From the NCBI GenBank assembly GCA_000004985.1, contig GG738850.1: a stretch of DNA of 64,000 nt; one strand, given 5' to 3'. Shown piece after piece: positions 27,168 to 59,412 of this stretch; positions within the stretch are counted from its first letter, which is position 1, and each line of letters starts with the position of its first letter. Below the pieces are notes generated by a model that was given only the letters and a program-made list of their open reading frames with translations, was not told the DNA's origin and did no database searches. The translations under genes were made by a program, and so were the position numbers. The stretch comes from Naegleria gruberi. Its lineage: Eukaryota.

Positions 27168-27345
27168 TTGTAAATAAACATTGCTATGTACATTCAAATA
27201 TTAAAATAACTGACTTTTGTATAACGTGCACTATTCGAAACTTGTCTAAAGCTTTTTCAATAGATTTAGTAATAAGGGGTATCATTAATGGAAATAGATA
27301 TTTGTTTATTACAATTTGGATATCATGTTCAAAAGAAAGATCAAT

Positions 27346-28395: not shown

Positions 28396-28697
28396 TTTTT
28401 TTGTGGAAGTAAAAGAAAATTCATTATTTTTTCACACAACAAAGAATTAAATAATTATTGAGAGAAAATTGTAGATTATTGAATGAATTTATTGTCAATA
28501 AATTCGAAAGAAAGTAAATTGGTAATGACAAGGTTGGATAATTTAGATAATGATATCAAACTCTACTTTTGAAAAAAAGATTTCACATGATGAACTTTAC
28601 ACACCATGATTTCACCTCAACTCTTATTACACTTAAATCAATTTGACCAACATCAATCAATTGTCAACTATTTGATAGCCAAATAACAATAAAAAAA

Positions 28698-29306: not shown

Positions 29307-29609
29307 TTTCCTTTTTTTAATTATTATTGTCTCTTGTCAATTTACAACAACAACTCGACGATCTTCCTATTTGATGATGCTTGTGAATGTTGTTTAATAG
29401 TCAATAATAACACGATTAAATATTTTTGTAAATTTTAAATAACACAAAAACTTTTGTTTCTCTCAAAATAAAATTTAAGCAAAAAAAATACATCAAAGGC
29501 TTTTTCCTTGCCGTTTAAAACTGATTACAAGCGTTTGAGTTTACAAGTATATAAATAATTTAAATCCACCAAATAATTAACAACCTTAAACATTCATCGG
29601 ATCAGAGAG

Positions 29610-31202
29610 ATGGAGTTTCTCAAAAGAAAGTTTGATGCTCTTGCTGATTATTTTGATGAATGGAAATTTAGAATATTATTCTTTTTTGATGAGGATATTT
29701 ATGATTACCTTTCAGAAAATGTCTTGTTTTTAATTTTTATATTATTACCAAATATTTTGGTATTAGTGTGTACTTTTAATATTTGGCCATTCAAGCCAAT
29801 GTATACATTTATATTATTATTTTTATTTAGTGTATATAATAGTATTGTCTTTTTTGAAAGAAAGAGGACTTATCAAATATTTAATTCAAATATTAATGAA
29901 TTGGATAATCTCTATTCTATTAATAAGAAGGATGAAACTAATTTTACTCGTGGTAATTTTTTTAATGAGAGGCCAAGACCTGGAATTCCAAATTTCAGAA
30001 AATCTGTACATCCCTTACTTGGTGCTCGATATGAAAAGGAACACCAAAAACCATTTATTCTTATTAGATTATTTAAAATGATTTTGGGAATTTTGGAAAT
30101 TGTCTTTCATTTTCTAACTGTTGGAGCTCTCAGAAACAAACGTGTGAGGAAGAGCAGATTATTTAAGGAGAGGGAAAAGGTCAATAGAATGACCTACTCA
30201 GAAAAGAAGAGACAGGAGGAAATTGATAATAGACCTGCCAATATGACTACATATTATGACGATATGGTAAGTTGTCTCAAGAAATTTACAATAACCAATT
30301 CAATTAAGGGACCCAAAATTGAGCCACAAGCCTCTGCACCTACTCATGAATCTGAAAATAATATCTATGAAATTGAAATGTGGGAATACTCTCAGTATGA
30401 CAGAGTGTTGGTGACCTACTTTTCTCCAATTCAAGTCTTGTTCATGTTTGCCATTTACTGTTTTGTAACTGGTAATTCCTCTACTATTATACTTACAAAA
30501 GCTGTACTTGTTCTATGTGTATATGTACAGTCTATTTTCTTAGATAGAATTATGATTAATTTGGAAAAGAAAGAATCTGATAAGAAAATTATTTATGCTC
30601 AAGCTCAAAAAGAACAAATTGAGTTTAATAACAGATTTAATCAGGTCAAGAATCAATATTTGACCAATATTATTAGGGAAAATAATATAAATATATCATT
30701 ACCAACTGATTACCATCCATTACATATTGTTGGTAATTCTATATTAAGCAATTCTAACAATGGAAATAATACAGATGAAATTATTGAAGAGGATGAAATA
30801 ATTATAGAAGATAGAAATCCAAATCAAAACAAACAAGCACACCAAACCACTAGGAGAGAAGAAATAAGGACAGATAGATTTCTGGTACCATCATCCTCAA
30901 GGCAATCAAATTCAAATCCAACCAACTCAACCACTAACAAGATGCAACTAATTGTCAATCCCAGCGAAACCTCAATTTTTGAGTCAAGAAATGAGCATAG
31001 CAGAGTAAGGGAAGAAATAAGGCAACAAAACCTCCTAGATATGGATTTGGATGAAAGTAGAAGAAACGATAATAGAAAACAACCAACTGTAAGTTCATCC
31101 ACAACTTCATCATCAGTTGATGAGGAAAACCAAAAAAAAAGAAAAGAAAATGAAGGAAATATCTTCCAAAAACACACCAGAAAAAAGGTAAAGCATGATT
31201 AA
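29610..31202 (+). CDS. Hypothetical multi-pass membrane protein with a charged, Asn-rich C-terminal tail.
   Basis: 530-aa ORF with three to four hydrophobic helices in the first 320 aa, then a basic/acidic low-complexity tail. No family recognised. Confidence 0.55.
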   Translation: MEFLKRKFDALADYFDEWKFRILFFFDEDIYDYLSENVLFLIFILLPNILVLVCTFNIWPFKPMYTFILLFLFSVYNSIVFFERKRTYQIFNSNINELDNLYSINKKDETNFTRGNFFNERPRPGIPNFRKSVHPLLGARYEKEHQKPFILIRLFKMILGILEIVFHFLTVGALRNKRVRKSRLFKEREKVNRMTYSEKKRQEEIDNRPANMTTYYDDMVSCLKKFTITNSIKGPKIEPQASAPTHESENNIYEIEMWEYSQYDRVLVTYFSPIQVLFMFAIYCFVTGNSSTIILTKAVLVLCVYVQSIFLDRIMINLEKKESDKKIIYAQAQKEQIEFNNRFNQVKNQYLTNIIRENNINISLPTDYHPLHIVGNSILSNSNNGNNTDEIIEEDEIIIEDRNPNQNKQAHQTTRREEIRTDRFLVPSSSRQSNSNPTNSTTNKMQLIVNPSETSIFESRNEHSRVREEIRQQNLLDMDLDESRRNDNRKQPTVSSSTTSSSVDEENQKKRKENEGNIFQKHTRKKVKHD

Positions 31203-31217
31203 AATAATTCAAAATGA

Positions 31218-32342
31218 TTAATTTGTTACAATATTTTGATACTTTTTCAATTCAGTATGCTTAGGTTTGTATAAAACAACAGTACAAAACTTGTCCTTGT
31301 ATCTTTGAGTGACACCAACCTTATTCATGTTATCTCTTTCAGCAAAGTAAGCATGGTTAACAGTGACGTGAAGTGGAATTGGTAAAAGACCTGGATCATA
31401 GTGGAATCTCTTGCTACTATTTAATGGAGTGTAACGCAAGTGAGGAGGTAAAATTGGTGGGTTTTTCTTATTTTCTGGGAAGATTTCTTCTTGATATCCA
31501 TATACATTACTATATTGTTTGGCTTCGCCATCCTTAGCTTCAGTTTTTTCATTTTCCTTTGTGTGATGAGCTGTTGTAGTGTGTGGTTGATGATGTGGTT
31601 GTTTTACAGTTGGAGAAACCTCATGAGTTGGAGAAGTATGAGATTGATGATGTGGTTGTTGTTGACCTCCGTAGGCACCAACACCAACTGGTTGTGGAAC
31701 ACTAGTGGTGGCTCTTCTTGGTGGAGAAGAAGCAGGAACACCAACGTGAGATTTAATTTCATGTTGTCTATTATTTCCTCCAATAACAATTGGTGATGAA
31801 GTTGTGTGATGATGATTTGATGACGATGATGAATTTGATGAAACATCTTCTTCATCTTCCTCTTCTTCTTCTACTTCCTCACTTTCTTCATCAGCTGTTA
31901 TTTCAACAACATTACTCAAATAGCCATGTTCATCCTTCTCAGTAGGTGAATTCAAATCAGTTGTATATTCTCCATCAACAATAAACTATTTTCATCAATA
32001 AATATTAAAATCATCACCATATCGGTTATAAATAATAATTCCAATTAATAAAACACATACTCTATAAAAGTGTTTTCCAACAGAAACGTTCAAAATAACA
32101 ACGAAAGCCTCTTCTTCGCTATTGTAGGACATTGGTATCTTTTCAGACCAATTATTAAAGCTACCAATAATATAAACTTTTCTTCCTCCGTATGGCCAAC
32201 GAAACATTGTTGGTACTTTGGTTTCATTAAAAGCAGCTGGCACATAATTATCATAATATTTATCATCCTTTGGAGTTTGAGCATGAGGAGAGTGGGCTCC
32301 ACCAGATGGTGTTGCTGGATTTTTACTTCCGGTCACACCCAT
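31218..32342 (-). CDS. AMP-activated protein kinase (SNF1 kinase) beta subunit. Two exons: join(31218..31985,32061..32342), about 349 aa; the N-terminus fits the MGxxxS myristoylation motif.
   Basis: Exon 1 holds the CBM48/glycogen-binding domain (KVPTMFRWPYGGRKVYIIGSFNNWSE...VGKHFYR) and ends at a GTATGT donor. A 75-nt intron (31986..32060) ends in AAATAG. Exon 2 continues FIVDGEYTTD... and ends with the ASC domain (VNHAYFAERDNMNKVGVTQRYKDKFCTVVLYKP). The track start at 32348 is a GTG; the ATG at 32342 gives MGVTGSK. Confidence 0.8.
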
Positions 32343-32629
32343 TTTCACTATTAAAATTGATCATCATTAATAATAATTATATTATCCAATATATAATATA
32401 CATATCATATAACACCATCATCATCAACAATCAAAATTTTCAATACATAAAACAATCAGAAAACAACGTACATTAAAGTATTTTGGTGGTGGAGGATATT
32501 TTTTTAGAGTTAGAAGGAAAATAAAAATAGCCTTCAAAAGAAAAAACAAGCAAATTGGGTTATTTTGAATAACCAAGTTGAAAATATCCGAAATTGGGTT
32601 AAAGAATAAAATTCACATTGAAAAAATGT

Positions 32630-33853
32630 TTATACAGTTGATAAACCCATTAATTTTCTCAATTCTTCATAGAGAGGAAGTGTAAGTAAGCAATGAGATC
32701 CAATTCTAATATAATTTGGTACAAATCCACTTGCAAAAGCTCTCACTCCATTGTTTTTCAAAGTTTTAACAGTACAATCAATTAGACCTGTATATTCAGT
32801 CTTGGATGCCATCAATCTGGTTTTGATAACATCAGCTGGATTAGTTGTAATGGTACTCAAAAGACCAGCAACAAGAGAAGCTGTCACGTGAGTATAGATA
32901 TTATCTTGGAAGTAATCAGTTTTGAGAAGTAAATGTTTCACATGATCATAGGTCGATAATTGAGTTGCAGTTAAAATTGAGGCACGTAAAACATTTGGTG
33001 TTGATCCTCTGAAAAGTCCCATAATACCACCTTCGTATTTGGTAATATTATTTACAATTTTAACCCAATTATCAGGTCTTTGTTGAGTAGCAGTTTTAAC
33101 AAATCCTTGCTATTTAATTATTTAATACAAAAATTCAATAATAATTATTAATATATAATTATTCAGTTTTTTGTATTTTTAGATTATTAAAATTCAGTTA
33201 TTAAATAAGATTAAGGTTTCTTGAAATACATACCTGACGAATTTTAACTAAATCACATCCATTACTAACAATACTTCCCAACGAACCTGAAATAGCTCCA
33301 GATAATATTTTAGTTGTCAATCCAACATCTCCACTAACAGTTTGTCCATTATGAACAATATTAGAAATGACACTTTTCAATGGATCATACATTCCCATTC
33401 TTACAGAGCTATAAAACTGCTCTCTCACAACAGCAGCAAATAATCCTCTTCCCACAAGTATTCCAAATCCCTCCTCCTTATACAAATTATAATATGACTT
33501 GGTGAATGATAATTTTTGATGTGTTAATTGGAGACGTGTTTTAACATGATCTGGAGAATTCATCAATCCAGATACGATACCTGCCGATATACCTCCTTTT
33601 GACAGAATTACAATTTGGCCATTTGATAAAACTTACCTGCAACAAACTTGAGCACAGTCTTGTAAATAGATTTGTTCTCTTCCAATCTCTTTTCATATTG
33701 CAAATGTTCATAATTTATCTTGTCATCATGATGTTCGGAAGTTAACAATGACGATGATTCGGTTGTTGGAGCAACTAGAGAGAATTGAACATCAGCAGTT
33801 GTTGTTTGTTTATTATTGCCAACGATATCGGAAGTGGACTTATTGAGCGACAT
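32630..33853 (-). CDS. Mitochondrial carrier (SLC25) protein, UCP/dicarboxylate-carrier-like. Three exons: join(32630..33109,33234..33595,33637..33853), about 352 aa.
   Basis: Three track ORFs carry the three carrier repeats (P.DHVKTRLQ; DLVKIRQ; PADVIKTRLM). Exon 1 ends VLKFVAG|GTAAGT. A 41-nt intron ends in AAAAG and restores the canonical F.AGG.AG...P.D..K.R.Q motif. Intron 2 (33110..33233, 124 nt) runs from GTATGT to AAATAG. Confidence 0.8.
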
Positions 33854-40976: not shown

Positions 40977-41516
40977 CTCCTATCCTAATCTAATGGAAAC
41001 TTGTCAAAGTTGCTTGGGTCAAAGAGAGAAAAAAAGATTTGCTTCGTTTTTTTTAAATGTCTACTTTCGTTCGGGCTATCTTGCGTCACTGGAAACCAAC
41101 AAACATCATCAAATGATTCGTAGTTGAGCAATATTTGTTTTTGGTAATTTAGGAGGAGTGGAAAGGAAATGGTAATTAACTTCGGTTTGTGTATCGTTTT
41201 CTGATGCAGGCTAGTACCACTCTTCATCGATCTATCACTGCAAGGCTATAAATGATATTTCACCAACGTTGGCAGAACATCAACACATATTAATATCACA
41301 TCTTTTATGAGTGCTGTAATCATCAGTGATGATTTTAAAAGAGTTGTGCGTTGATCTATGAAGGTAAATGAACAATTTTTACTTCCTTAATTTAATTGTG
41401 GTCCTATTATCAATGCAAATGTAACTTAATTGCTTGTAGGGGAATTCCTTGTTATTGTTGTTCAATTTTTATAAAAAATAAAATTTAAGAAAAATTATTT
41501 ATTGAATTTCAAAAAA

Positions 41517-44048
41517 ATGCCAAGCACCGTTGCTTCCATCGCTTCTGCTGGCGGAAAGTCATCAACAAACAATAACAATAATTTTAAAATGGATTTAATG
41601 GATCTTTTGGATAGGTCTCAACAATTGTTACCGGTTGTTGATAATTTTATTCAAAAAGATTTGGAATCTATTCATGAACAATCTAAAAAATTAATTCAAA
41701 AAACAGCAAGAGGAGATGTTCAATCAAAAGGAGATTATTTGCTTGCTGCTCACGGATTTGATGTGGAAAAGTATAGAAGAACAGTTAGTAGATTAGATCT
41801 TAAACAAGCCTTTGAACCTTTGGAACCTATCGGAGAAACAGATATTGAAGGTTATTTAAAACACGAACACGATATGATTCTTCTCTCTTCTGTAGAAGAA
41901 TCTAAAAGACATACTAGTAGTTGTTTTTATAAGAACTTTAATGATCACTTGGAGGATGATTGGAAATCAGCTAAAGAAAGCTTGATGAAAACTTTGAACT
42001 TACACAAAGCTTACCAAAGTCAACAATTTAGACCATCTCTTGGTTTGAATGACTCTGTCAGAAAACCATCTAAGTATTCATCATTCATTGTTTCATCAGG
42101 AAATTCTACACCATTCTCGTCTCCTATTAATCAAAATACAACTCTTATGGCTCCAACTCCAAAGAGAGGTAAGACTACAATGGACGAAAGAATGATTGCC
42201 TATAGCACTGTTGTTTATAATATTAACAAGACTATGAAGGCAGACCAAACTACTAGAATTATTGATCAATTCTCTGAAGCTGCCAAATATATTGAAGAAT
42301 CAGTAGCAAGGAAGAGAGAAGTTACAGAATGTTGGAGGTTATTGAGTTTCATGATCAATGAAAATAATGTTCATGGTGAAATCTCACAAAAGGACCTTTT
42401 ACGAGGAGCTAAAGAATATATGGAAACTTCCTATGTTCAATATATTAAAGATTTATTAGGTATTGAAGGAGAAGTTCCTGATAAATTGAAGCTCATTGAA
42501 CAATTTGTTGCTGAAACAACTAAGAATATTTTACCGGAACACCTCGGAGAATCTATTAATGGAAATTATATTTGGCCAGTATTATTTTATTGTTTAAGAT
42601 GTGGTTTCATAGAAGAAGCTCTTAGATTCACCAATGACCATATTGCCTATTTCTCTCAAGTCATTATTAGTGCTTTGGAAAATAAGAAGGAAGCTCAAAC
42701 TTCTAGCTCTTCAAGCTTGGAACAACAATTGCACGAATTATATAGAAAGATACCACCAAATAGATTATTCCAACATGCTGTATACTTGGTTTTGGGTAGA
42801 TGTGACGTGAAGAAGACCATTCCACAGATTTTCTCTAAAACTGAAGACTTTATGTGGTTGAAACTTTCCATAATAAGAGACGATTCAAATTATACATTAC
42901 AAGATTTACAAAAGATTGTTACATCACATGGACCAAAACATTTCTGTCCAAAGAAGAACTCTCTACTCTACTTTAAGCTTTTGTTATGTACTTTGCAATT
43001 TGAAAGAGCCATTCAATATCTCTGTAGTCGTCAAAGTGAAGGATATCACGTTGAAGCTGTTCACTTTGCATTCACCCTTTACTTCTACGATCTCCTTAAC
43101 GTTTCCGAAGACACTAGTGCTCCTCTTTTGACAGAGAAGGATGGTTGTCAACTTAACTTCCACTTCTTAATCAAAGATTACATAAGAATATTCGCCCATA
43201 CTGACCCATGTATTGCTGCTTCATACTTTTACATTTTCTATAAGAGAGATGAAAAGAAGAAATACTTCAAGTCTATCAAGGAATTGATAATTGAAGGAAA
43301 GGATGTATCTGTACTTTTGGGTCATGTAGATATTGATGGAAAATTGAAGAATGGATTTTTACACTACTTCTTAGATTCTTTTGATTTCCTGGAATTGGCC
43401 GAGTCATGTGCTCAATTATACAATGAAGCAGGTAGATATAGAGATTCAGTAGATATTTATTCAATGGCTTTATTATATAACTTTAGTTTAATGCCAGATC
43501 TTTCTGTTGATACACCAAATCGTTTGAAGAAATATATTCATTCTATTCTTGCCATTATGATTGATGAATTGAGTCAAGTATTGACCGGAGGTGAAAATAG
43601 AGAAGAAGTTAAGCAACTTGCCTCTAAAGTCTTTAAAAACTTTACTGATAACAAGATTCTTCAAATTATTGAACAAAGCAACAAGAAGAACTTTGAAACT
43701 TTCAAGATGCTTCTCAGTCTTACAAAAGTATTTGACAGCTTCTTGAATAGAAATTACGATCGTACTCTTGCAGATTTACAACAACTTCAAATTGTTCCAT
43801 TCAAAAAGCAAGAATTGGAGAGTATTTCATTAAGACAACTCGATAAGAAAATACAGAAGAAACTACCAGATATCTTATTTGTAGCTATGTGTACTCTTTG
43901 CCATTTACATTCTTCATCCAGATCTCACTCTCAAAATGAAATCAAGGATATGGCCTCGAATGTAATGTCATTTGCTGGTCTTAATGAAGAATTGGTTAGC
44001 AGTGATGTAACTACTCAACTCTTGCAATTCGTAAATAGAATGAAGTAA
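41517..44048 (+). CDS. NUP93: Nucleoporin Nup93/Nic96.
   Basis: 843 aa from the ATG at 41517; the track start at 41502 is a TTG. AFEPLEPIGETDIEGYLKHEHDMILLSSVEESKR matches Nup93 ([34 protein letters not shown]). The rest has Nic96-type alpha-solenoid character. Confidence 0.8.
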   Translation: MPSTVASIASAGGKSSTNNNNNFKMDLMDLLDRSQQLLPVVDNFIQKDLESIHEQSKKLIQKTARGDVQSKGDYLLAAHGFDVEKYRRTVSRLDLKQAFEPLEPIGETDIEGYLKHEHDMILLSSVEESKRHTSSCFYKNFNDHLEDDWKSAKESLMKTLNLHKAYQSQQFRPSLGLNDSVRKPSKYSSFIVSSGNSTPFSSPINQNTTLMAPTPKRGKTTMDERMIAYSTVVYNINKTMKADQTTRIIDQFSEAAKYIEESVARKREVTECWRLLSFMINENNVHGEISQKDLLRGAKEYMETSYVQYIKDLLGIEGEVPDKLKLIEQFVAETTKNILPEHLGESINGNYIWPVLFYCLRCGFIEEALRFTNDHIAYFSQVIISALENKKEAQTSSSSSLEQQLHELYRKIPPNRLFQHAVYLVLGRCDVKKTIPQIFSKTEDFMWLKLSIIRDDSNYTLQDLQKIVTSHGPKHFCPKKNSLLYFKLLLCTLQFERAIQYLCSRQSEGYHVEAVHFAFTLYFYDLLNVSEDTSAPLLTEKDGCQLNFHFLIKDYIRIFAHTDPCIAASYFYIFYKRDEKKKYFKSIKELIIEGKDVSVLLGHVDIDGKLKNGFLHYFLDSFDFLELAESCAQLYNEAGRYRDSVDIYSMALLYNFSLMPDLSVDTPNRLKKYIHSILAIMIDELSQVLTGGENREEVKQLASKVFKNFTDNKILQIIEQSNKKNFETFKMLLSLTKVFDSFLNRNYDRTLADLQQLQIVPFKKQELESISLRQLDKKIQKKLPDILFVAMCTLCHLHSSSRSHSQNEIKDMASNVMSFAGLNEELVSSDVTTQLLQFVNRMK

Positions 44049-44060
44049 AAATAATTTTAT

Positions 44061-45941
44061 TTACTTATCCTTTAATTTCTTTTGGTACAAAACATTGGAT
44101 GTCTCATCCAATGTTTCGTGTTGGTCTCGTTTTCTTTTTACATTTTCTGAATCTTCTTCAATGTTATTTACATCTTGATTGGAAATATTGTTAGTGTTGA
44201 TTGTGTAGTTTGGTGGTATTGCCAAGTAAGGGAATTGATTTGTGTAAAAATAATATTGTGGTATCATTTGTGGTGGATATGTAATAAAAGATGCTTGTGT
44301 TGTGTCTATTGAGCTATTACCTTGATTTGTAAGTGTGTTTGTTAACACACCTGATGGATTTGGTTGAGTAGTTGTGTATATTTGTTGTGATGGTTGTGTC
44401 AAGGCCCACTGAGCATACGGAAAAACAGTTGGGAATGTTGTAGCATTGGAAGTGGTAGTGTTTTGTGAAGTATTATAAATACCAGTTGTAATATTACTAG
44501 AAGTGGTTGAGGTAAGTGCATTTGGTGGAATGGCCATAGCAACCATTCCATTTGGTAAAACAGTTGTTATAGAAGAAGGTGGTGTAGATGTGTGAAGTTG
44601 ATGATGTGGGGAAAGTGTTGGTGTGTTTAAATTAAGTTGATTGAGTTGATGGTGTAGTGGAGATGGTGGTGCTGATGTATTATTTCCCATTATCATCATT
44701 AACTTGTTTTTGGAATATCCAATAGGTGATTTTGAAGGGCTTACTTTGATTTGTTTGACACTTCCTGCAATTGTACATCCACTTAATCTTAAAGCTCTCA
44801 AAGTACTTTGCTTATCTTCGAATTCAATAAAACAAAATCTTGTTTCGTATGATTCTGTATCTCCAGCCATAGCAATTCTGTGAATGGCTCCACATAATTC
44901 TTCAAAAAATGCTTTAACATGATCTTGTGATAGTTTTACGTCAATGCCACCCACATGAATTGTCCTCTCGACTAGGTCTCTATATTGTTTATCAATTAGT
45001 GACTTCTTAGGTGGTGTTTGAATGGCAGTTTTTGAGTGAGATACCTTGAGTTTAGATTTTCCCCAAAGTGAACCATTAACCATTATAGCCTTAAGTGACT
45101 GTTCAGTTGTGGCATATTCAATGAAAGCAAACTTGGTTTGTAGTTGTGTGTTAGAATTAGATGATTGTTGGTCATTATTACACAGTCTATAGTTAGTAAT
45201 ATCGCCATATACACTAAAGTAATCCAATAATTCATCTTCAGAAAATGAACTATCAATCCCAGAAATGTGAATTGTTCTACTTGCAGCAGAGTTAGCATCT
45301 ACAATGCTACTATTTGATATTGGAGAAAGTCCACCCAGATAAAGTGACGATGGGCTTGGTGGCAGATAATTGGGTGGGAGAGTGGAAGTTTCTGGTGATT
45401 CTACCTTCTTCTTTCTGATCGGATCTGTTTTCTTCTTGTTATTATTTTGAGGAGTAATTAGTGGGGGAAACACAACTGGCTTTTCAATAAGTGGAGTTAA
45501 ATTGCCATTATTACCATTGTTATTATTATTATTTGTGGAGGCAGAATTTTGTTTGCTATTAAAATCGTGTTTAGCCATAGAGATTTTCAAATTTTGTCCC
45601 ATAAACTCGGTACCATCTAAACTTAGGGATAATTTAGCTTGGTGATGATCTACAAATTCAACGAATGCAAACCTCTTAGCATAGGAAGGATCACCAGCTA
45701 ATTTAATATTTGTTACTTGACCATATTTTGAAAATAATAATTGAAGTGATTCTACGGTCGTATAACTAGAAATATTTCCAATATGTATTGTTCTTGATGT
45801 GTAATTATTTGATGATGATGATTGATTATTCGATTGGTGATGATTCTTTCTCGTGTGACTGCTGGAATTAAAAGATTTGTTATGATTCATTTTTTTGTGT
45901 AATTTCCCGCCAACAATTTCTTGAATTCTTTTACTGGGCAT
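44061..45941 (-). CDS. RNA-binding protein with three SREK1-type RRMs, N/S/T/Q-rich.
   Basis: Three RRM-like domains each beginning RTIH(I/V)G, with KLAGDPSYAKRFAFVEF, TKFAFIEY and TRFCFIEF RNP1-type motifs resembling SREK1/SFRS12 (AGDETQPTRFAFVEF). Confidence 0.65.
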   Translation of the reverse strand: MPSKRIQEIVGGKLHKKMNHNKSFNSSSHTRKNHHQSNNQSSSSNNYTSRTIHIGNISSYTTVESLQLLFSKYGQVTNIKLAGDPSYAKRFAFVEFVDHHQAKLSLSLDGTEFMGQNLKISMAKHDFNSKQNSASTNNNNNNGNNGNLTPLIEKPVVFPPLITPQNNNKKKTDPIRKKKVESPETSTLPPNYLPPSPSSLYLGGLSPISNSSIVDANSAASRTIHISGIDSSFSEDELLDYFSVYGDITNYRLCNNDQQSSNSNTQLQTKFAFIEYATTEQSLKAIMVNGSLWGKSKLKVSHSKTAIQTPPKKSLIDKQYRDLVERTIHVGGIDVKLSQDHVKAFFEELCGAIHRIAMAGDTESYETRFCFIEFEDKQSTLRALRLSGCTIAGSVKQIKVSPSKSPIGYSKNKLMMIMGNNTSAPPSPLHHQLNQLNLNTPTLSPHHQLHTSTPPSSITTVLPNGMVAMAIPPNALTSTTSSNITTGIYNTSQNTTTSNATTFPTVFPYAQWALTQPSQQIYTTTQPNPSGVLTNTLTNQGNSSIDTTQASFITYPPQMIPQYYFYTNQFPYLAIPPNYTINTNNISNQDVNNIEEDSENVKRKRDQHETLDETSNVLYQKKLKDK

Positions 45942-46358
45942 TAATTGTTATCCGATTTCTTCATGTCATTTGTGACCGTACTAATCATCTTAAAGCAACT
46001 CTTTTCAATCAAATTTGATGCCTTGCATTGATTGTCGTCGATAAATTGGCAAAGTTCATTTGTAAACTGAAATCCATTTGAAAATTTGTAAAAGGTGAAC
46101 TCTTCTCAACACAAATTGTTCCCAATCTATGCATAATCAAAAAAGAACTCAATATTACGTAGCTGATCCTTATATATCACTGGAACAACTGTTCTTTGTT
46201 CTTGTGTGAATTATGGAATCAAAAATTCAAAACTTTATTTCTTGATATAATAATTTAAAAATGTAGGTACATGAGATAAAGTGATTCTCTCTGAGATGAA
46301 TCGAATAACATCATATTGATGAATAATACAATTTCCAGTAAATACAGAATATTAAAAA

Positions 46359-46772
46359 ATGAAAAATGAAAAACTCAAATCGTCATCGGATCAACAAGTT
46401 TTTAATTTATCAAAAATTGATTTAAATAACAAGGAATTGATTAAAGCTCTGGAGAGATTACCAACTACAGAACAATTCATGACAAATGTAAAGCAAAATA
46501 ATATTGAATTTATAATTCCGGATTTGAGAAGTATTCATAATGTGGTGAAGGAATTATTGCCCAAACCAAACAAGGGATTGTGGGAACCACAGTTTAATTT
46601 GGATCCATTCATATTGTCCTATATGGCTTTGTTATATCAGAATAGGGATAAGAAGAATCAACAAGAAAAGGATCAACAATCTGGTAAACAAGAAGAAGGA
46701 AACAATGTAGAGGCTAAGCCTTCGGAGGACAAGAAGGAAGATACTACACCACAGAGAATTTCAAAGTTGTAG
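46359..46772 (+). CDS. Hypothetical small protein (137 aa).
   Basis: ATG-initiated ORF with a charged C-terminus. No family recognised. Confidence 0.4.
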   Translation: MKNEKLKSSSDQQVFNLSKIDLNNKELIKALERLPTTEQFMTNVKQNNIEFIIPDLRSIHNVVKELLPKPNKGLWEPQFNLDPFILSYMALLYQNRDKKNQQEKDQQSGKQEEGNNVEAKPSEDKKEDTTPQRISKL

Positions 46773-47013
46773 AATAATAGGCTTTTAGGAACTATTCTAC
46801 AATTTGAAACAAGAATAGCATTGGTGTAATTAATTACATCAATTAATTGGAAGAGAAATTAGGTTGCATCAGAATATTTAACTGTTCGAAAAACTAGAAT
46901 ATCATGAGAGTGCTCCAATAATATTAGTGCAAATTCACATCAAATAATCATCACGATTATTTAATTGTTTAATAACAAATTCACTTTATATTATTTATTA
47001 AATAAATAAAAAA

Positions 47014-48397
47014 ATGTCATCAGAAACAAAAGTTGTATCGGATACATCAGTGCCACTCTATCAGGTCGATGATACCAATAAATTGCAATGCTCTACACCA
47101 ACATCATCAACTATTCACTTGTTCACCAAGTCAATATTAACATCAAATAAGCAACAAATAATTGGTGATTTAAATAGTGAAAGTACTACTCAACAACATC
47201 CTATTGAACCTGGTAATATTCATTGTAGTAGATTAGCTTCCGATTTAAATCAAGCCTCCACAGTATACTTTATTAACAAATCTAAATTATTCAAAATTAA
47301 ATATGAATTACCTAGTAGTGAAGTAAATGTATGGAAACCAACCAAGAATGCTAAATTACCTTATCCTTTACTTATTTCCGATATTGATGTTACTAAAATT
47401 TATCAATCCACATTAGATGTTAATTTCCAAGGTATTGAAATCGATAAGAATAGAATTGGTTTAACTGATGATATGGGAAATATTTATATTTTAAATAACA
47501 CATTTTCTACTAGTAATAATGAGGAAGATGATGAGGAAACTGATAACAGTTCAAAGAAGAGAAAAGTTGACGAAAAGAGTACTATTCAATGTGTTTACAA
47601 TAATATTGATACAATTAAATATCATGTTAAAGGTCACACTTCACTTAAATTCCATCCAACTAATGAAGCTGTTATTATTAAGAGTACTTTTGAAACTAAG
47701 AACGTTTCTATTTTTGATATCAATAACCAAAAGAGCATATTTTCTGTTAACACAATGCAAAATCCAACCAAATTGCATACCTTTGAAATTCCACAATCAA
47801 ATAATACATTATTAGCAATTGGAGAATATAACAATGTTTCAATTTGGGATTTCAGAACAAACAAACCAGTTAATAGACTGACTAGAACTAGAGGAATTGT
47901 TTATGATATGGATATTACAACCAATGTTAAATGTGGTAAAAATAATTCTAATGCCTTATTGGGTGTTATTGGAAGTGACAGAACTGTCTACATGTATGAC
48001 ACTATGAAATGGTCTCCAATTCACAAGTGGCAAAATTGTTTGAAATATGCTGTAAGTAGACAATCTTTTGAAAGATTCTTTAATCAATGTATTATTATAG
48101 CCATCTTACTTATCCTTCTCAAATATTAATAAGGAATTGTGCTACGTTGCTGGTTTTGATAATAGTGAATTCAAATGTGGTAATTTCGTTGATCAAAAAC
48201 AACAAAGAAAGGGTAGAGGTCATGGTCTCTATGCTGACAATAGATGGATTGGTATGACTAAACCGAATGCGCAAGATACTATCGTTGGTATTAGTATGAA
48301 TGGTTCTTTATATGTTATTGAACATCCACACCGAATGGCTCCAAACTTGAATGATTTAGTTCCTTCTACAGAAGCTCAAGATGTCATGGACGAATAA
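47014..48397 (+). CDS. WD40-repeat-like protein, hypothetical. Probable two exons: join(47014..48051,48134..48397), with an alternative acceptor at 48100.
   Basis: The first ORF ends at a GTAAGT donor at 48052 (..CLKYA|GTAAGT). The downstream ORF frame is open from 48101. The AAG acceptor at 48132-48133 gives an 82-nt intron and avoids translating a pyrimidine tract. The TAG acceptor at 48099-48100 gives a 49-nt alternative. WD-like strands (VSIWDF, YMYD). Confidence 0.5.
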
Positions 48398-48416: not shown

Positions 48417-48865
48417 TCAATCCAGCTTTTTCATTGATAAGTGGTTAAGCAATTCCTCAAAATACCTGGAAAGTTTTGAACACAACAAAGTTTCCGATAG
48501 TTCTTTTTCTTTGATAAAGCTCATCAATCTTTCAATTGTATCCAATGTATTGGTTATGTAAAAACCTATATCGTCAAAATAGTTCTCATGTGTTTCAAAG
48601 TTAGCATAAATTATCTCAAAATCTTCTAAATTAGAAAATAAATTAAAGATTTGTTTATATAATTCGCATGAATCACATCGGGTTTCCTTTTGCATTGTGT
48701 AGGCTTGCATCGTATGCAATATGAATAATTGTGCAATGTTATGAAAATCACTCGTTTAAGCAATAGTGTTTTGTCTTTGAAATCCTCTGCTAGCATTTTT
48801 CTATTATTAACAAGCACACAATTCCACCAATATTCAAATTTGGTGTTGCAGAGCAAACTGAACAA
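48417..48865 (-). CDS. Possible small gene (two overlapping minus-strand ORFs of 79 and 100 aa in different frames); structure unresolved.
   Basis: Only ORF evidence. The track start of the 100-aa ORF is a TTG. It may be a spliced small gene or noise. Confidence 0.2.
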
Positions 48866-49023
48866 CCAGAATTATGAAGTGTAAGCCAGTAATAATATAT
48901 TGGAGTGAATACACAATATCATCTGTTGAAAGGCAATTTCATTAGACAGGGTGAGCTTGGGGTCATGCAAAGACTTTCCAATTCAGAAGAAAGTTGATAT
49001 TACTATTTATTTGTTTTGGTCTT

Positions 49024-49302
49024 CTATTTAAAATAATACATTGCAACTACCAAGAAAAACATACTAAGTAAGGTTACTTGTAATCTGTTATTTCCATCCA
49101 CAATTGCTTCTAATAACTTATCATTGCTTTCTAATAACTTATCATTGCTTTCTAATAACTTATCATTGCTTTCTAACAACTTGGCATTGCTTTCTAACAA
49201 TTTGGCATTGCCTTCTTCCATAGTTTCTTTAAGGCTTTGGATTTGGGCTCTAACTGAGTGGTTGGATGATCCTCCTGATGAACTGCTTGTGTAGCCTTCC
49301 AT
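49024..49302 (-). CDS. Tail-anchored small protein, paralog 1 (92 aa), with five copies of the 7-aa (S/G)N(A/D)KLLE repeat.
   Basis: MEGYTSSSSGGSSNHSVRAQIQSLKETMEEGN, then (NAKLLES)(NAKLLES)(NDKLLES)x3, then a C-terminal transmembrane segment LQVTLLSMFFLVVAMYYFK. ATG at 49302. Confidence 0.6.
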   Translation of the reverse strand: MEGYTSSSSGGSSNHSVRAQIQSLKETMEEGNAKLLESNAKLLESNDKLLESNDKLLESNDKLLEAIVDGNNRLQVTLLSMFFLVVAMYYFK

Positions 49303-50814
49303 TTTTTTAAATTAAATATTATTTAAAAATAGAGAAACGCTCAAAACTTACCTTCTTCTTAAACACAATAAACGATGAGGAGTTGTAATGAAAAACTTAC
49401 ATCTTCCGAAAACATATCACCATTAGCGTGAAATGCATCAAGGTGAGAAGAGGAGCCCATTGTTGCAGAAGTACTATCACTTCCAGTAGATGATGTATTT
49501 TGGTTGTTTTTTGTTGTTTTGTTGGGGAAGGTTGTTCCTCAATAACTCACATTTAAGCAAAAAAATTCCACATCTAATGAAACACATGATGAAGCATGGA
49601 TGTTCCAACGACGCTATTGAGCAACTTTACAAAATCCACATCCAATTAAAACATGTTGTTTGTCTTCCTTACAATCGCTGCGAGATCCCTTAATATAACG
49701 CATCTGGTATCCTCACTGTTTTCACTTATCAAAAACGATTTTACAAGTCATCCACATAATCAAGGCAATACAGCCAACCTTAAAGACTCGGGAGGAATGG
49801 TAGCATAAATAATACTGCTAATACAAAGAAATGCTCAATGATCCTATCATTGTGTAATGACACAAAAATATGAAACGCAAGACTTAAACCCAACATATTT
49901 AGCTATAGCTTCCTTTTAGTGCTTTAGAAACGCGGTTTGGACATTCTCGCTTTCATAGGTTTCTTAAGGACAAAACATTAAGCTGACACCTTGACAAGAC
50001 TTCTCTTTCTTGATGGTATTTTTTTTGGACTTTCTTTTAAATATTAATTTTTACAATAAATATTTGTATCCTTAATATCCTTGACAGGAGCCAAAGGGCA
50101 AATATTTTGAGATGATAAATTGCCATGCCATTAAATATTATTTAACTTCGAGCTTAAGGATTGTAGTTGTTATCTGTGCATAATAGGAGACCGAACACTG
50201 CTATTATTTTGATTTGAAGAATTATTAATATTAAAAAAAACCTCATCAGCTGATTGGAAAAAACCAATATTCTTTCTCATTAATAAGAATACTCACTCAA
50301 AAAATTCAAAGGGGAAACGATGTCATAAGAGTTATTTTTAGTTTTTAAACTTTGTTCATATTAAATACTCGGTGAAAACAAAAGGAAGAAAAGTAAGGCA
50401 AGCTAAATTACTGAATGTGAGTATTACATATCTTAGAGTTTTACCAAGTGTCGTTTTCCAAATTCTACCAAGTTTTACACCCACTCTTCTAAAATTTGAT
50501 TAAAGACTCAGGGAAAACGATTCAAGTGATGGATTATGGTATTTGTGAAACGTACCCTAACTTCCGATAAAAGTGAGCCAATTCTATTGAAGGAAAGATA
50601 AGATACACTTGAGTTTGATTCATGAGAAGCTTTTAAGAAGGTTGATGAGGTAAATGAAACTAGTTTTGTTTCCAACGCACACTATTTTAGCCCACTCACC
50701 AAAAGGTTGGTAATTTCACCGAAACTATGGTTTTCACTACAAACTATTTTTAAGGCAGAAATGTTATCTCTAAAGATTAGAAGAATATCTATATTTATTC
50801 ACTTTTTTGGCCTT

Positions 50815-51051
50815 CTATTTAAAATAATACATTGTAATCACCAAGGAAAACATACTAAGTAAGGCTGCTAGTACTCTGTTATTCCCATCCTTAATTGCTT
50901 CTAATAACTTATCATTGCTTTCTAACAACTTGGCATTGCCTTCTAACAACTTAGTATTGCCTTCTTCCATAGTTTCTTTAAGGCTTTGGATTTGGGCTCT
51001 AACTGAGTGGTTGGATGATCCTCCTGATGAACTGCTTGCACTGTCTACCAT
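50815..51051 (-). CDS. Tail-anchored small protein, paralog 2 (78 aa), with three heptad repeats.
   Basis: MVDSASSSSGGSSNHSVRAQIQSLKETMEEGNTKLLEGNAKLLESNDKLLEAIKDGNNRVLAALLSMFSLVITMYYFK. ATG at 51051. Confidence 0.6.
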   Translation of the reverse strand: MVDSASSSSGGSSNHSVRAQIQSLKETMEEGNTKLLEGNAKLLESNDKLLEAIKDGNNRVLAALLSMFSLVITMYYFK

Positions 51052-51415
51052 TTTTTATTAACTATTGTTTAAAAATAGAGAAATGCTCAAAACTAACCTC
51101 GTGGTCTAGTCCACGCACCTTAAATTGTAATGTAGGCTTAATTATTCAGTAATATTAGGTTCATCCATTGAAATATAATATTGAATGCAGTGACAAACCA
51201 TTTGTTTCGCACACATAATTTGCTAATTAACCTGAACAGAAACCCATATCTTAATCTATTATTTGAATACCTGAAATTTGCTCCGTTGTGATAGAAAACA
51301 ATTCAACTGATCCCTTATAGTTTCAATTTTAAATAAATCATTAACGATTTTTTAGTAAGAAAGGTTAGAACAAAAATTGGAAGAATATATTTATTCAGTT
51401 TGTTGGTTTGGCCTT

Positions 51416-51631
51416 CTATTTGAAAAAATACATTGCAACCACCAAGGAAAACATACTAAGGAAGGTTACTTGTAATCTGTTATTTCCTTCCACAATTGCT
51501 TCTAATAACTTATCATTGCTTTCTAGCAACTTAGTATTGCCTTCTTTCATAGTTTCTTTAAGGCTTTGGATTTGGGTTCTAACTGAGTGGTTGGATGATC
51601 TTCTTGATGAACTGCTTGTGTAGCCTTCCAT
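51416..51631 (-). CDS. Tail-anchored small protein, paralog 3 (71 aa), with two heptad repeats.
   Basis: MEGYTSSSSRRSSNHSVRTQIQSLKETMKEGNTKLLESNDKLLEAIVEGNNRLQVTFLSMFSLVVAMYFFK. ATG at 51631. Confidence 0.6.
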   Translation of the reverse strand: MEGYTSSSSRRSSNHSVRTQIQSLKETMKEGNTKLLESNDKLLEAIVEGNNRLQVTFLSMFSLVVAMYFFK

Positions 51632-52039
51632 TTTTTATTTTAAATTGCTGTTCGTGATGTTCAGCTTGTAACTTTACAACTTATTTTGCCAAATACTTAC
51701 AAGTAATATCGGAGTTAGAGAAGCTCAATCTTAACACTGTTTTAATACAATTAGTAATGAAGGAGCCAAATACTTTGAAATGAAACAATTTACAAAACTT
51801 TATATCTCCAATGATATTCCTTAATTGAACCAATTCTTTACAAGTGGATGATGTAAATCAATTTAATTAATACTTTATTGTAAACTAACACCACTAACCT
51901 TTTGTTAAATTTCCTCTCTATTTGGTTCGACAGTATCAACTTTTCGGACCTCAATCACTGACACAAATCGAAACTCTACTGCACACAACTAAATTATCCG
52001 CTCGAATGTTATTGATAGCAAGAAAAAAAAACTTTTCAC

Positions 52040-54055
52040 ATGAAAACCCTATTGTCGTTAGCAGGCAGACTAACAAGTCTCACCATGCTGTTATTCTTAT
52101 ATTGTTTACTTGTTGCTTTAAACAATTCGACAGTAGAAGCATCCATTGATCCACTCTATAAAATGTCAACATTTATTGGTGGTGGCACATCACCCATTAC
52201 AAATGGCATACTCACTACAAATGCTACACTCTCTAGACCTAGTGGTTTAGCTTTATACAGAGGAGAAGTCTATCTAGTAGATTCTGCAAGAATTCTAAAA
52301 GTTAACAATCATAACAATTCCCTTACTATTATTGCTGATGTAAATGCAATGTTGAATAATCCATTTGGTATTTGTTTGAATGATGAAGGTGAAATTTTTA
52401 TTGTTGAGCGAGCTTCACATGTGGTTCGTAAAATTTTGACAAATGGTACAATTATTGTATTTGCTGGAATTGTTAATCAACAAGGTTATTCTGGGGATGG
52501 TGGTTTGGCTGTAAATGCAGCTCTTAATTGGCCATATGATGTAGCATGTGATTTAAAGACTGGTGATGTTTACATTTCAGATAATGAGAATCAACTTATT
52601 CGAAAGGTGTTCAAAAATGGAACTATTACAACAATTGCTGGATCTAGATCTGGAGGCACAACACAAGATGGATCTTTAGCCACCCAAACTGTAATTAATC
52701 GACCAATGATGATGTCTCTGAGTTCGAATGGTAATCTCTACTTTACTTCAAATATTTGTACAATTCGAAAGATCAGTACGAATCAAACTATTTCAACAGT
52801 TGCTGGCGATGGTCAAAATAATAATTATCGTAAAAATGACATTCTAGCTACATTAGTAACTCTGGATGTACCATTTGGAGTCGATGAAGGTCCATTTGGT
52901 GAATTGTACATTGCAGAAACTTACCTTAGTGCTATTCGAAAGGTTTCTCCAAATGGAATAATTTCAAAAATTGCTGGAACTTTCCAATCAGGAGTTTCAC
53001 TGAATACCGTTTTAGATGCTTCCAAAGCTCAAATAACCGATCCATATGATGTCATAGTTGATCCTTCTACTGGAATAGTTTACTTTTCCGAATATTCATC
53101 AGATGTTAAACGAGTTGCTAAATTGGAGCCATACTGTACATTTCCTTTTGAATTAATTAATGGAACATGTACTTACTCATGTTATGGAATTGGATATGAT
53201 GATGCAAGAGTTTGTGCTGGGCATGGAATTTGCCTTTCGAATAATACATGTCAATGTGAATCAGGATGGAAAGGTAATAATCAATGTTCCTTACCTTCAT
53301 GTGAATTATTGAATAATTGTACTGGAAATGGAATGTGTATTTCAAATAATACTTGTGAATGTAATTCCAAATGGAAACATATTGATTGTTCCATTAGTAT
53401 TTGTATTCCATATTTGAATTTAAATAGTCAATTACAATGTTCTCAAGATTTAAATAGTCAATTATTAACATTTAATGAATTACAATCAAATATTAATTTA
53501 AATCCAATTAATTTAAATGAAAATCAACAAATTACTTTTATTTTAGGTAATAATTTTACAAATAATTTGGAAAATTCAAAATATTTTATTAGTTCATCAA
53601 TTTCTCAATCAAATTTACAATTTTATTCAAATGTTACAAATTTAGTTTTACAAAATTCAAATTCTACATTCATTCAACTCCAATTATCAAATTCAATTCA
53701 ATTCCATTTCAAAAATATCGACATTGAACTGTCATCTTTCAATTATACATGTTTAAGATATGACTATTTGTTAAATAGATGGACAAATGAATCAATTTCT
53801 ACAATAATAGATTTATCCGTGAATGAAATTACATGTTCAACTAATTATTTATCTACATCAATTGTTATTCAGAGATATAGAATTATTGAAGTAGTTCCAT
53901 CAAAGTCAAATGTCATCCCAAAGGTATCGAATAGTAATGGTGGAACTGTTGTTAATCCAAAAGAATCTAATAGAGGAATTATTAGTCATGCAATTAGACT
54001 TGTCGGTTCAACAACTTTGACTGTTGTAATAATGATGATATTTAACATTTTGTAA
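52040..54055 (+). CDS. Secreted or surface protein with N-terminal NHL-repeat beta-propeller and tenascin-type EGF-like repeats, Asn-rich C-terminal region and hydrophobic tail.
   Basis: Signal peptide (MKTLLSLAGRLTSLTMLLFLYCLLVALN). Repeated NHL-like blades (PSGLALYRGEVYLVDSA; PFGICLNDEGEIFIVE; PYDVACDLKTGDVYISD; PMMMSLSSNGNLYFTS; PFGVDEGPFGELYIAE). Cys-rich EGF-like modules (CAGHGICLSNNTCQCESGWKGNNC; CTGNGMCISNNTCECNSKWKHIDC). C-terminal hydrophobic segment. Confidence 0.75.
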   Translation: MKTLLSLAGRLTSLTMLLFLYCLLVALNNSTVEASIDPLYKMSTFIGGGTSPITNGILTTNATLSRPSGLALYRGEVYLVDSARILKVNNHNNSLTIIADVNAMLNNPFGICLNDEGEIFIVERASHVVRKILTNGTIIVFAGIVNQQGYSGDGGLAVNAALNWPYDVACDLKTGDVYISDNENQLIRKVFKNGTITTIAGSRSGGTTQDGSLATQTVINRPMMMSLSSNGNLYFTSNICTIRKISTNQTISTVAGDGQNNNYRKNDILATLVTLDVPFGVDEGPFGELYIAETYLSAIRKVSPNGIISKIAGTFQSGVSLNTVLDASKAQITDPYDVIVDPSTGIVYFSEYSSDVKRVAKLEPYCTFPFELINGTCTYSCYGIGYDDARVCAGHGICLSNNTCQCESGWKGNNQCSLPSCELLNNCTGNGMCISNNTCECNSKWKHIDCSISICIPYLNLNSQLQCSQDLNSQLLTFNELQSNINLNPINLNENQQITFILGNNFTNNLENSKYFISSSISQSNLQFYSNVTNLVLQNSNSTFIQLQLSNSIQFHFKNIDIELSSFNYTCLRYDYLLNRWTNESISTIIDLSVNEITCSTNYLSTSIVIQRYRIIEVVPSKSNVIPKVSNSNGGTVVNPKESNRGIISHAIRLVGSTTLTVVIMMIFNIL

Positions 54056-55101: not shown

Positions 55102-55174
55102 TGCTGACGGACGGGATCGAACCGGCGACCAATGGCTTATTAGACCAACGCTCTACCGACTGAGCTACGCCAGC
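55102..55174 (-). tRNA. tRNA-Ile (anticodon AAT), with one C-U mismatch in the T stem.
   Basis: Reverse complement is GCTGGCGTAGCTCAGTCGGTAGAGCGTTGGTCTAATAAGCCATTGGTCGCCGGTTCGATCCCGTCCGTCAGC(A). A box TAGCTCAGTCGGTAGAGC, B box GGTTCGATCCC, anticodon loop CTAATAA, 7-bp acceptor with one G-U. T stem GCCGG/CCGTC has a 50-64 C-U mismatch and the anticodon stem has a 27-43 U-U mismatch. Confidence 0.7.
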
Positions 55175-58582: not shown

Positions 58583-59014
58583 GGTTGGAGCAAGAAGAAA
58601 TATTTTTTTTGAGGTCGTTTTTTAAATTTCAATCATTTTGTGTGTTGGTGTGTTGACTTCAAACTTTTGCCGCTCGTTTTTTAAATCGCTAATTGAAAAT
58701 ACTAGTTGTTTGTAAATTGAAGCAAATGGTGTATGTGTCGGAATCATGTTGTGTGTTGTTGGATAACAATGAGTAATTATATTGCTTGATGATATATTAT
58801 TTGGATAACAAATTATTTTTCTATTGGGTTTTTTTGGAGGAGTTTTATGTTTCTCCTTTTTGGGAACCTCTAAGTCTTAAGACTTAAACAATCCAAAAAA
58901 ATCATTGTTGAATAGTCATCCTATGAGTTAAATAATAACTTATTCTGAATGGCCACCTTCCTTACTTTACACAATTTCTTTGCACAGACAGTTAACTGTT
59001 AAAACAAAACAATT

Positions 59015-59086
59015 CTCCCATGCCGGGAATTGAACCCGGACCTCCTGGGTGAAAGCCAGGTATCCTAGCCATTGGACTACACGGGA
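59015..59086 (-). tRNA. tRNA-Glu (anticodon TTC).
   Basis: Reverse complement is TCCCGTGTAGTCCAATGGCTAGGATACCTGGCTTTCACCCAGGAGGTCCGGGTTCAATTCCCGGCATGGGA(G). Anticodon stem-loop CCTGG-CTTTCAC-CCAGG, B box GGTTCAATTCC, and a T4 run a few nucleotides 3' of the gene. Confidence 0.9.
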
Positions 59087-59412
59087 ATACATTTACAATG
59101 AAAATATTTCACTGATGAACAAAACTGTAAATGACGGATATTGGAATTGTTTGCTTAATAATTTAAAAAATAATATTAGGGAATATATTTGCTGGTATGT
59201 TATTCAAAAATCAATTAAAAACTGAATGCAGAGAAATTCATTTAAATATTATTATTTCAGATGACAGTTTTCAATTTTGTTGTTTATTGTTTGTGAAAAT
59301 GAAATCTCTACTTATTTTCATCATTTTCCTCAAACTCAACATTATATTCTTCCATTCTTTCCTATAAATAGAGCAAGACATTTGCAACAAAATAATTTTC
59401 ATTAAATAAAAA

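Follow-up and report, generated by a model that had tools for sequence, protein, structure and literature searches.

In the 64,000-nucleotide (nt) stretch of the Naegleria gruberi genome that we analysed (contig GG738850.1 of assembly GCA_000004985.1; hereafter the window), three small open reading frames (ORFs) on the minus strand, copy 1 (c1), copy 2 (c2) and copy 3 (c3), are best explained, with a probability that we put at roughly 0.55, as unannotated, lineage-restricted, paralogous genes that would form a young family of putative tail-anchored helical microproteins of 71–92 amino acids (aa). A first-pass annotation, made by reading the sequence alone, had proposed these genes, and it was exact as to their position, strand and length:

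49024..49302, minus strand: c1 ORF, 92 aa with five heptads (the coordinates include the stop codon)
50815..51051, minus strand: c2 ORF, 78 aa with three heptads
51416..51631, minus strand: c3 ORF, 71 aa with two heptads

All three frames contain head-to-tail, in-frame 21-nt units, the number of which differs among the related genes, as in a coding minisatellite, and each unit encodes a heptad of the form (G/S)-N-(A/T/D)-K-L-L-E. The heptads of c1 are GNAKLLE, SNAKLLE and three of SNDKLLE, those of c2 are GNTKLLE, GNAKLLE and SNDKLLE, and those of c3 are GNTKLLE and SNDKLLE. The copy numbers of 5, 3 and 2 claimed earlier were returned both by splitting the frames into codons and by Tandem Repeats Finder (TRF), which delimits the arrays as follows:

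49103..49216, minus strand: 21-nt coding minisatellite of c1, 5.5 units
50894..50965, minus strand: 21-nt array of c2, 3.5 units
51495..51545, minus strand: 21-nt array of c3, 2.5 units

The unit TTCTAATAACTTATCATTGCT stands in perfect threefold tandem (3 × 21 nt) at 49108–49170 in c1, just as the first-pass annotation had noticed, with 0 matches in 100 shuffles. Minisatellites gain and lose units by slippage or unequal recombination, and neighbouring units that are fully identical are a mark of recent expansion; the differences in copy number between the genes would be accounted for by replication slippage or by unequal exchange in the 21-nt coding minisatellite. Across the ten repeat units, the codons for N, K, L, L and E vary synonymously only (AAA/AAG, TTG/TTA, TTA/CTA), and the non-synonymous variation falls on heptad positions 1 and 3. 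That the repeats are assembly artefacts of a single gene, a possibility raised at the outset, is excluded by the 14–24 substitutions that separate the copies over 216 alignable nt and by their unique flanks. Coding minisatellites that vary between paralogues or strains are known from yeast FLO and cell-wall genes and from protist surface antigens, although these mostly encode secreted or cell-surface proteins with long Ser/Thr-rich repeats, whereas the unit described here encodes a helical heptad in very small, putatively cytosol-facing proteins.

We scored codon usage by log-odds, with 20 long ORFs of the window as the training set; on this scale, genuine in-frame 75-codon windows reach 0.30 ± 0.14 bits/codon, and out-of-frame windows have their 99th percentile at 0.106 bits/codon. 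The three small ORFs score 0.33 (c1), 0.30 (c2) and 0.16 (c3) bits/codon on the minus strand, all above 99% of out-of-frame windows, and their antisense frames score −0.07, 0.01 and −0.15 bits/codon, respectively, which is non-coding usage. Between 48300 and 52100, every other open segment with 60 or more codons stays at or below 0.06 bits/codon, and only two shorter segments of that region score like the small ORFs: 49362..49538 (59 codons, 0.25 bits/codon) and 50173..50292 (40 codons, 0.27 bits/codon). Each ATG is immediately preceded by 5–6 A's, a start context shared by 11 of the 19 ATG-start ORFs of the window, and an in-frame stop lies 2–4 codons 5′ of it. Past the stop codons, an AATAAA is conserved in three of three copies:

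49006..49011, minus strand: AATAAA of c1, a putative poly(A) signal, 12 nt past the stop
50794..50799, minus strand: AATAAA of c2, 15 nt past the stop
51390..51395, minus strand: AATAAA of c3, 20 nt past the stop

All copies thus combine the features expected of a gene, namely an open frame, codon usage typical of the species, and signals for the start and for poly(A) addition. Within the 216 aligned ORF nt there are no indels besides whole 21-nt units, as compared to at least three in the ~100 nt of homologous flank; at equal rates this contrast would have a probability of roughly 0.002, but A-runs raise the indel rate of the flank. Moreover, the last 18 codons contain nine non-synonymous changes, none of which lowers the hydrophobicity of the tail, and only 0.16% of simulations that start from a majority-rule ancestor do as well.

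The architecture shared by the three proteins (a Ser-rich head, heptads and a C-terminal hydrophobic anchor) had been read correctly. A head of 30 residues, M-x4-SSSS-GG/RR-SSNHSVR-A/T-QIQSLKETM-E/K-E, is followed by the heptads, by the linker AI(V/K)(D/E)GNNR and by an 18-residue hydrophobic tail, after which all copies end in one Lys and the stop. While the Ser-rich N-terminus is present in every copy, the sequence quoted for it earlier is exact for c1 only: c2 begins MVDSASSSS, and in c3 the GG is replaced by RR. The tails are encoded as follows:

49030..49083, minus strand: codons of the hydrophobic C-terminal segment of c1 (LQVTLLSMFFLVVAMYYF), then one Lys codon and the stop
50821..50874, minus strand: codons of the hydrophobic C-terminal segment of c2 (VLAALLSMFSLVITMYYF)
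51422..51475, minus strand: codons of the hydrophobic C-terminal segment of c3 (LQVTFLSMFSLVVAMYFF)

Each tail holds one segment of 16–18 residues with a mean Kyte–Doolittle hydropathy of 1.9–2.1 and a summed Hessa-scale value of −1.5 to +1.3 kcal/mol; for c1 the mean hydropathy is 1.90 and the lowest Hessa sum is −0.91 (residues 76–91). The segment has basic flanks, Arg just before it and the single Lys after it, and, as in tail-anchored proteins, it is the one hydrophobic segment in the last ~30 residues, with a single residue beyond. Hydropathy windows of 19 residues (a dedicated signal-peptide predictor was not used) revealed neither an N-terminal signal peptide nor a second transmembrane (TM) segment, and the N-terminal 52–73 residues are ~34% Ser/Asn/Gly, the remainder being polar or charged. 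In the tail-anchored class, the anchor leaves the ribosome only at termination. Because there is no signal peptide and the sole hydrophobic segment is at the extreme C-terminus, membrane insertion would have to be post-translational, whether of the GET/TRC40, EMC or mitochondrial-outer-membrane type, and the helix would stay on the cytosolic side. Being only moderately hydrophobic, short and flanked by basic residues, the segment allows no firm choice of target membrane between endoplasmic reticulum (ER)/Golgi on the one hand and mitochondrial outer membrane or peroxisome on the other.

AlphaFold2, run on the three-sequence alignment, predicts a single unbroken helix over residues 13–91 of c1 (mean predicted local distance difference test score of 86), with a disordered Ser-rich dozen residues ahead of it. 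The predicted proteins would therefore consist of a short disordered N-terminus and a long amphipathic, heptad-periodic helix that runs into the moderately hydrophobic TM segment, with ~61, 47 and 40 helical residues ahead of the TM domain (TMD) in c1, c2 and c3, respectively. The heptad periodicity is clear over seven heptads in c1, and the second Leu of each heptad lies beside the core, which gives the helix a narrow Leu–Leu stripe.

Several observations, concerning the substitutions, the homology searches and the helix itself, weigh against this interpretation. The Nei–Gojobori ratios of non-synonymous to synonymous substitution rates (dN/dS) for the three copy pairs are 0.73, 0.42 and 1.28 (with 14–24 differences per pair), and ~22% of the 29 substitutions are synonymous, which equals the neutral expectation, with no codon-position signature of purifying selection. 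When substitutions are placed at random in simulations, all three frames stay open in 21% of cases and the start and stop codons are spared with P ~0.44, or ~0.09 for both together. The antisense frame is nearly open, with 1–2 stops per copy, and the tail hydrophobicity test loses its significance (P = 0.12) if c2 is taken as the ancestor. The dN/dS of about 1, the neutral synonymous fraction and the chance retention of the frames speak for non-functional or ‘proto-gene’ ORFs, i.e. a chance-open short segment that was copied three times or gene-converted, with its repeats drifting by slippage, in a gene-poor stretch at a rearrangement breakpoint; such ORFs would persist by chance and recent copying, and no useful protein would be made. 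The lack of homologues and of entries in collections that hold other N. gruberi proteins of the window points the same way, as does the position of the cluster in a 3.6-kb stretch without conventional genes, beside a break in synteny with N. fowleri and N. lovaniensis. However, gene-like codon usage in three of three copies, the conserved start context and AATAAA, and the exclusion of frame-breaking indels from the ORFs but not from the DNA immediately outside them all argue against it, and so do a hydrophobic tail kept through nine non-synonymous changes and heptad core residues that vary synonymously only. We consider non-functional ORFs a doubtful explanation, albeit the most serious of the alternatives, and a weakly constrained young protein-coding family the more likely one. 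Beyond the open frame, the helix and the hydrophobic tail, the amino acid sequences of such a family would be under little constraint, as is typical of young orphan families.

As to homologues, a word-indexed search of protein collections with c1 gave no matches, not even c1 itself or its paralogues, and exact look-ups of c1, c2 and c3 in the assembly index gave no record, as was also the case for the N. gruberi scaffold itself. Since two other genes of the window are represented in the same collections by their annotated N. gruberi proteins, the three ORFs are apparently absent from the deposited N. gruberi gene set. An exhaustive hidden Markov model (HMM) search of 1.84 billion representatives with a three-sequence profile returned four weak matches (E = 4e-7 to 8e-4), all of them multi-stretch and repeat-driven. 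Scans of metagenome and viral contigs found no relatives, a sequence search of the PDB returned designed helical repeat proteins only, and no Pfam match of the three small proteins exceeded the cut-offs. Similarly, tblastn of the three proteins against the loci of the neighbouring WD40 gene (see below) in N. fowleri, N. lovaniensis and a related metagenome contig, and against the Nup93 locus of Willaertia, found none; because gene order is rearranged at precisely this place, these loci probably did not sample the true orthologous position, and species specificity is for this reason not proven. The two large protein collections, the scans and the fetched loci thus yielded no homologue in another genome. 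The earlier statement that no described family has this layout is borne out by the Pfam, PDB, profile and word-indexed searches, and the BLASTP/HMMER-type check that it had called for turned up no family, SNAREs included, that accounts for the repeats.

Two of the four profile matches (E = 4e-7 and 8e-4) are to proteins whose origin is not recorded: P0006, built with SNNKLWE units, and P0009, built with SHGKLLE/SQGKTLE units and matching Pfam DUF6944. Both have nearly the same tandem heptad consensus, S-x-x-K-L-[LW]-E, as the Naegleria unit. They differ in that the matches cover the repeats only, in several stretches, without the Ser-rich head or the C-terminal TMD and with other flanking domains, and the likeness looks like convergent low-complexity similarity and not homology. 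What is new here would be the orphan sequence family, and what is familiar is the tail-anchored topological class into which the proteins, resembling miniature helical stalk proteins but belonging to no described sequence family, appear to fall.

The helix, finally, is hydrophobic at one canonical core position only (I21, M28 and then one Leu per repeat); the other core position is polar, being Asn in the register with N at a and L at d, or Ser/Gly in the register with L at a. While the ‘coiled-coil spacer’ of the first-pass annotation is rightly described as a heptad helix, its coiled-coil nature is uncertain: self-association of the helix is plausible, whereas a stable classical coiled coil cannot be taken for granted, because Leu occupies just one canonical core position per heptad. 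In GCN4-type leucine zippers, a single buried Asn specifies parallel dimers. The Naegleria sequence N-x-K-L-L-E-S likewise allows a register with Leu at d and Asn at a; it differs from GCN4 in that every heptad has Asn at a (or, in the other register, Ser/Gly at d), from which a weak or non-canonical interface is to be expected.

The number of heptads bears on the length of the helix, each added heptad lengthening it by ~1 nm (7 × 0.15 nm). The first-pass annotation had gone further and suggested that the length of a cytosolic stalk is being varied as a function, a suggestion that finds no support here: dN/dS is ~1, and frame-preserving changes in length are not evidence of selected length, because slippage of a 21-nt unit keeps the frame mechanically. 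We regard it as unlikely that this is an N. gruberi-specific, possibly de novo-born family with a zipper-like stalk stepped by 7 residues (~1 nm), the different lengths of which have been retained for different jobs; reach or spacing at an organelle surface would, speculatively, be examples of such jobs. In known tail-anchored coiled-coil tethers (golgin-84, giantin, CASP) and in adaptors such as Mff, a cytosolic helical stalk is joined to a C-terminal TMD, and the length of the helix sets the reach of the N-terminus from the membrane. Those proteins, however, run to several hundred or even thousands of residues, are conserved throughout the eukaryotes and carry defined partner-binding motifs, whereas the small proteins have a stalk of 40–61 residues and neither homology nor a known partner.

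A closer parallel in size is provided by the minimal tail-anchored SNAREs (synaptobrevin/VAMP, Bet1, Sft1), which are ~70–120 aa long, have a short unstructured N-terminus and no signal peptide, and consist of a heptad-periodic helix that passes straight into a single C-terminal TM segment with almost no luminal tail. The resemblance extends to the contiguity of helix and TM anchor in the small proteins, and the Pfam Synaptobrevin model (PF00957) aligns to residues 15–87 of c1 with E = 0.37, which would be in keeping with a highly divergent member of a known tail-anchored family such as the synaptobrevin-, Bet1- or Sft1-like small SNAREs. Yet c1 scores 11.1 bits against a gathering threshold of 26.4 bits, c2 and c3 give no match, and no SNAREs were returned by the exhaustive profile search. 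Furthermore, the SNARE motif is fixed at 53 residues and 16 layers, with which a variable heptad number (and a helix of ~40–61 residues) is incompatible; the ~40 helical residues of c3 fall short of it, no zero-layer Q/R can be identified, and every repeat has Asn or Ser/Gly at one core position. Of all the alternatives, a divergent SNARE appears to us the least probable.

The first-pass annotation had attributed the three copies to recent tandem duplication, which is too simple. While the conservation of flanking DNA on which it relied is real, the conserved flanks are very short: homology extends 51 nt upstream of the ATG and 39 nt downstream of the stop between c1 and c2, 8 nt upstream and 73 nt downstream between c2 and c3, and ~15 nt upstream and 13 nt downstream between c1 and c3. 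The spacers c1–c2 (1.5 kb) and c2–c3 (0.36 kb) do not align with each other. Because copying of a contiguous block would leave homologous spacers, a recent block duplication does not explain the cluster. The differences between the copies are also patchy: no difference separates c1 from c2 along 83 nt (ORF nt 14–96), and 15 c2-specific changes are clustered at nt 5–13 and 139–166. The 83-nt run is significant under uniform placement of the differences (P = 0.0008) but not when conditioned on the polymorphic sites (P = 0.11). Since the homology is limited to the ORF plus tens of nt and the differences are patchy, copying or homogenisation of a transcript-sized tract fits better, whether through gene conversion between the paralogues of the cluster or through duplication of a short-segment or RNA-mediated kind. 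Under our preferred reading, the paralogues would have been spread or homogenised over a roughly transcript-sized tract by such short-segment duplication, gene conversion or both. A mobile element was considered and rejected, since the termini show no consistent inverted repeats and the window contains no further copies.

Part of the short flanking homology is an upstream motif that the first-pass annotation had described as common to c1 and c2, and the two instances indeed proved to be 88% identical. Each contains a hexamer of the form GT[AT]AGT, and c3 has such a hexamer as well:

49305..49353, minus strand: upstream motif of c1, common to c2; it begins AGGTAAGT, has GTAAGT at 49346–49351 and holds the TATA-like CTATTTTTAAA
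51051..51099, minus strand: upstream motif of c2, 88% identical to that of c1, with GTTAGT at 51092–51097
51695..51700, minus strand: GTAAGT hexamer (5′ splice-site-like) upstream of c3, 64 nt from the ATG

The hexamers GTAAGT, GTTAGT and GTAAGT start 49, 46 and 69 nt upstream of the ATG of c1, c2 and c3, respectively, as compared to a background of 0.04 per 100 nt per strand. The TATA-like CTATTTTTAAA follows the hexamer in c1 and c2, ~25–30 nt before the ATG, and the hexamer of these two copies may simply belong to a compact promoter; the recurrence of the hexamer may also be coincidental. Just upstream of c1, the 59-codon open segment at 49362..49538 (minus strand), mentioned above for its coding-like usage, contains an ATG at 49460 and 20 codons (MGSSSHLDAFHANGDMFSED) that end exactly at a further GTAAGT (49395–49400); the segment may be a small exon belonging to an unannotated gene, or a product of chance.

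The hexamers raise the question of a different gene structure, in which GT[AT]AGT is a real 5′ splice site and the genes have an intron in the 5′ untranslated region (5′-UTR), or the ORFs are terminal or alternative exons. The occurrence of GTAAGT or GTTAGT upstream of three of three copies, against so low a background, is consistent with this, as is the form of a bona fide N. gruberi intron in the window: the 49-nt intron of the neighbouring WD40 gene (~48089–48137, plus strand), GTAAGT...TATAG, opens with the same hexamer as is found upstream of c1 and c3. In addition, the coding-like 59-codon segment ends just past its ATG...GAAGAT|GTAAGT junction, and c2 and c3 have an AG acceptor ahead of the ATG, which makes a 5′-UTR intron possible in these two copies. 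In c1, however, no AG acceptor lies between the GTAAGT and the ATG. Splicing to the first shared AG would remove the ATG, and the TAA two codons upstream would preclude an in-frame upstream exon; spliced models that use the upstream GTAAGT were accordingly rejected, as none extends the frame and the c1 acceptor is missing. Every ORF is, moreover, complete with its own ATG, stop and AATAAA, and the 408 nt between c3 and the divergent NHL/EGF gene leave scant room for upstream exons. We judge a spliced structure improbable; the limits of homology, which lie close to the ORFs, and the 408-nt gap agree better with small stand-alone genes.

Coding on the minus strand was also weighed against the possibility that the conserved unit is a structured or regulatory non-coding RNA or DNA element, or that the plus strand is the coding one. 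Because the complementary frame has only 1–2 stops per copy, antisense ORFs overlap the small genes on the plus strand:

49124..49294, plus strand: antisense ORF of 56 aa, non-coding codon usage
50915..51061, plus strand: antisense ORF of 48 aa, non-coding codon usage
51408..51623, plus strand: antisense ORF of 71 aa, non-coding codon usage

While the nearly open plus-strand frame and a nucleotide conservation that is equal at all codon positions would suit a non-coding or plus-strand function, the antisense frame lacks a conserved start as well as coding-like codon usage, terminal inverted repeats are absent, and both the AATAAA and the A-rich start context read in the minus-strand direction. 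A structured RNA was rejected: Rfam gives no match at E ≤ 1 in 46000–52500, and neither strand shows excess folding energy (z = +0.96 and −0.83). This explanation is, in our estimate, very improbable, and protein-coding genes on the minus strand remain our preferred reading.

The three small genes lie between conventional N. gruberi genes:

41502..44048: Nup93 ORF, 848 codons, 100% identical to nucleoporin nup93 [Naegleria gruberi]
47014..48397, plus strand: WD40 gene of two exons, the 3′ end of which lies downstream of c1; it matches an N. gruberi ‘predicted protein’
52040..54055, plus strand: NHL/EGF teneurin-like gene, a single exon encoding 671 aa with NHL repeats, EGF-like modules and a C-terminal hydrophobic segment; divergent from c3

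The identity of the Nup93 ORF corrects the amoebozoan affiliation assumed by the first-pass annotation: N. gruberi is an amoeboflagellate of the Heterolobosea. In the densely packed window, the 3.6 kb between 48400 and 52040 are unusually sparse, with no conventional gene besides the three small ORFs, and the longer minus-strand open frames there (48420..48755 and 48629..48871) look non-coding in their codon usage. The gene that comes after the WD40 orthologue is an LRR_TMOD-LMOD gene in N. fowleri, in N. lovaniensis and in a related metagenome contig; the N. gruberi orthologue of this LRR_TMOD-LMOD gene is located at 28698..29306, 19 kb from the WD40 gene. Because these neighbours in the relatives sit so far apart in N. 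gruberi, the cluster adjoins a rearrangement breakpoint.

If expressed, the small ORFs would represent three genes apparently missing from the deposited gene set of N. gruberi, a free-living relative of the pathogen N. fowleri, and would offer a clean small case of an orphan microprotein family arising by short-segment copying, gene conversion and in-frame slippage. They would also add to the few very small tail-anchored proteins known outside the SNARE, Sec61 and TOM families. At present, they are mainly an annotation gap and an evolutionary curiosity, with no sign of a new mechanism.

Some further features of the window were recorded. Compared with window positions 21612..33512 and 41502..48397, the gene order of N. 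fowleri and N. lovaniensis places the WD40 gene between a gene encoding 1050 aa and the LRR_TMOD-LMOD gene; in N. gruberi it stands beside a Nup93/RRM pair, and ~7.5 kb with three long ORFs, one of them a 1619-aa RabGAP/RhoGEF gene, lie between a mitochondrial carrier gene and Nup93. The NHL/EGF gene contains four DNA repeats ~170 nt apart (52423–52981). Finally, the window holds four tRNA genes:

18663..18733, minus strand: tRNA-Gly(GCC)
20980..21050, minus strand: a second tRNA-Gly(GCC), 2.3 kb from the first and on the same strand
55102..55174: tRNA-Ile(AAT)
59014..59087: tRNA-Glu(TTC)

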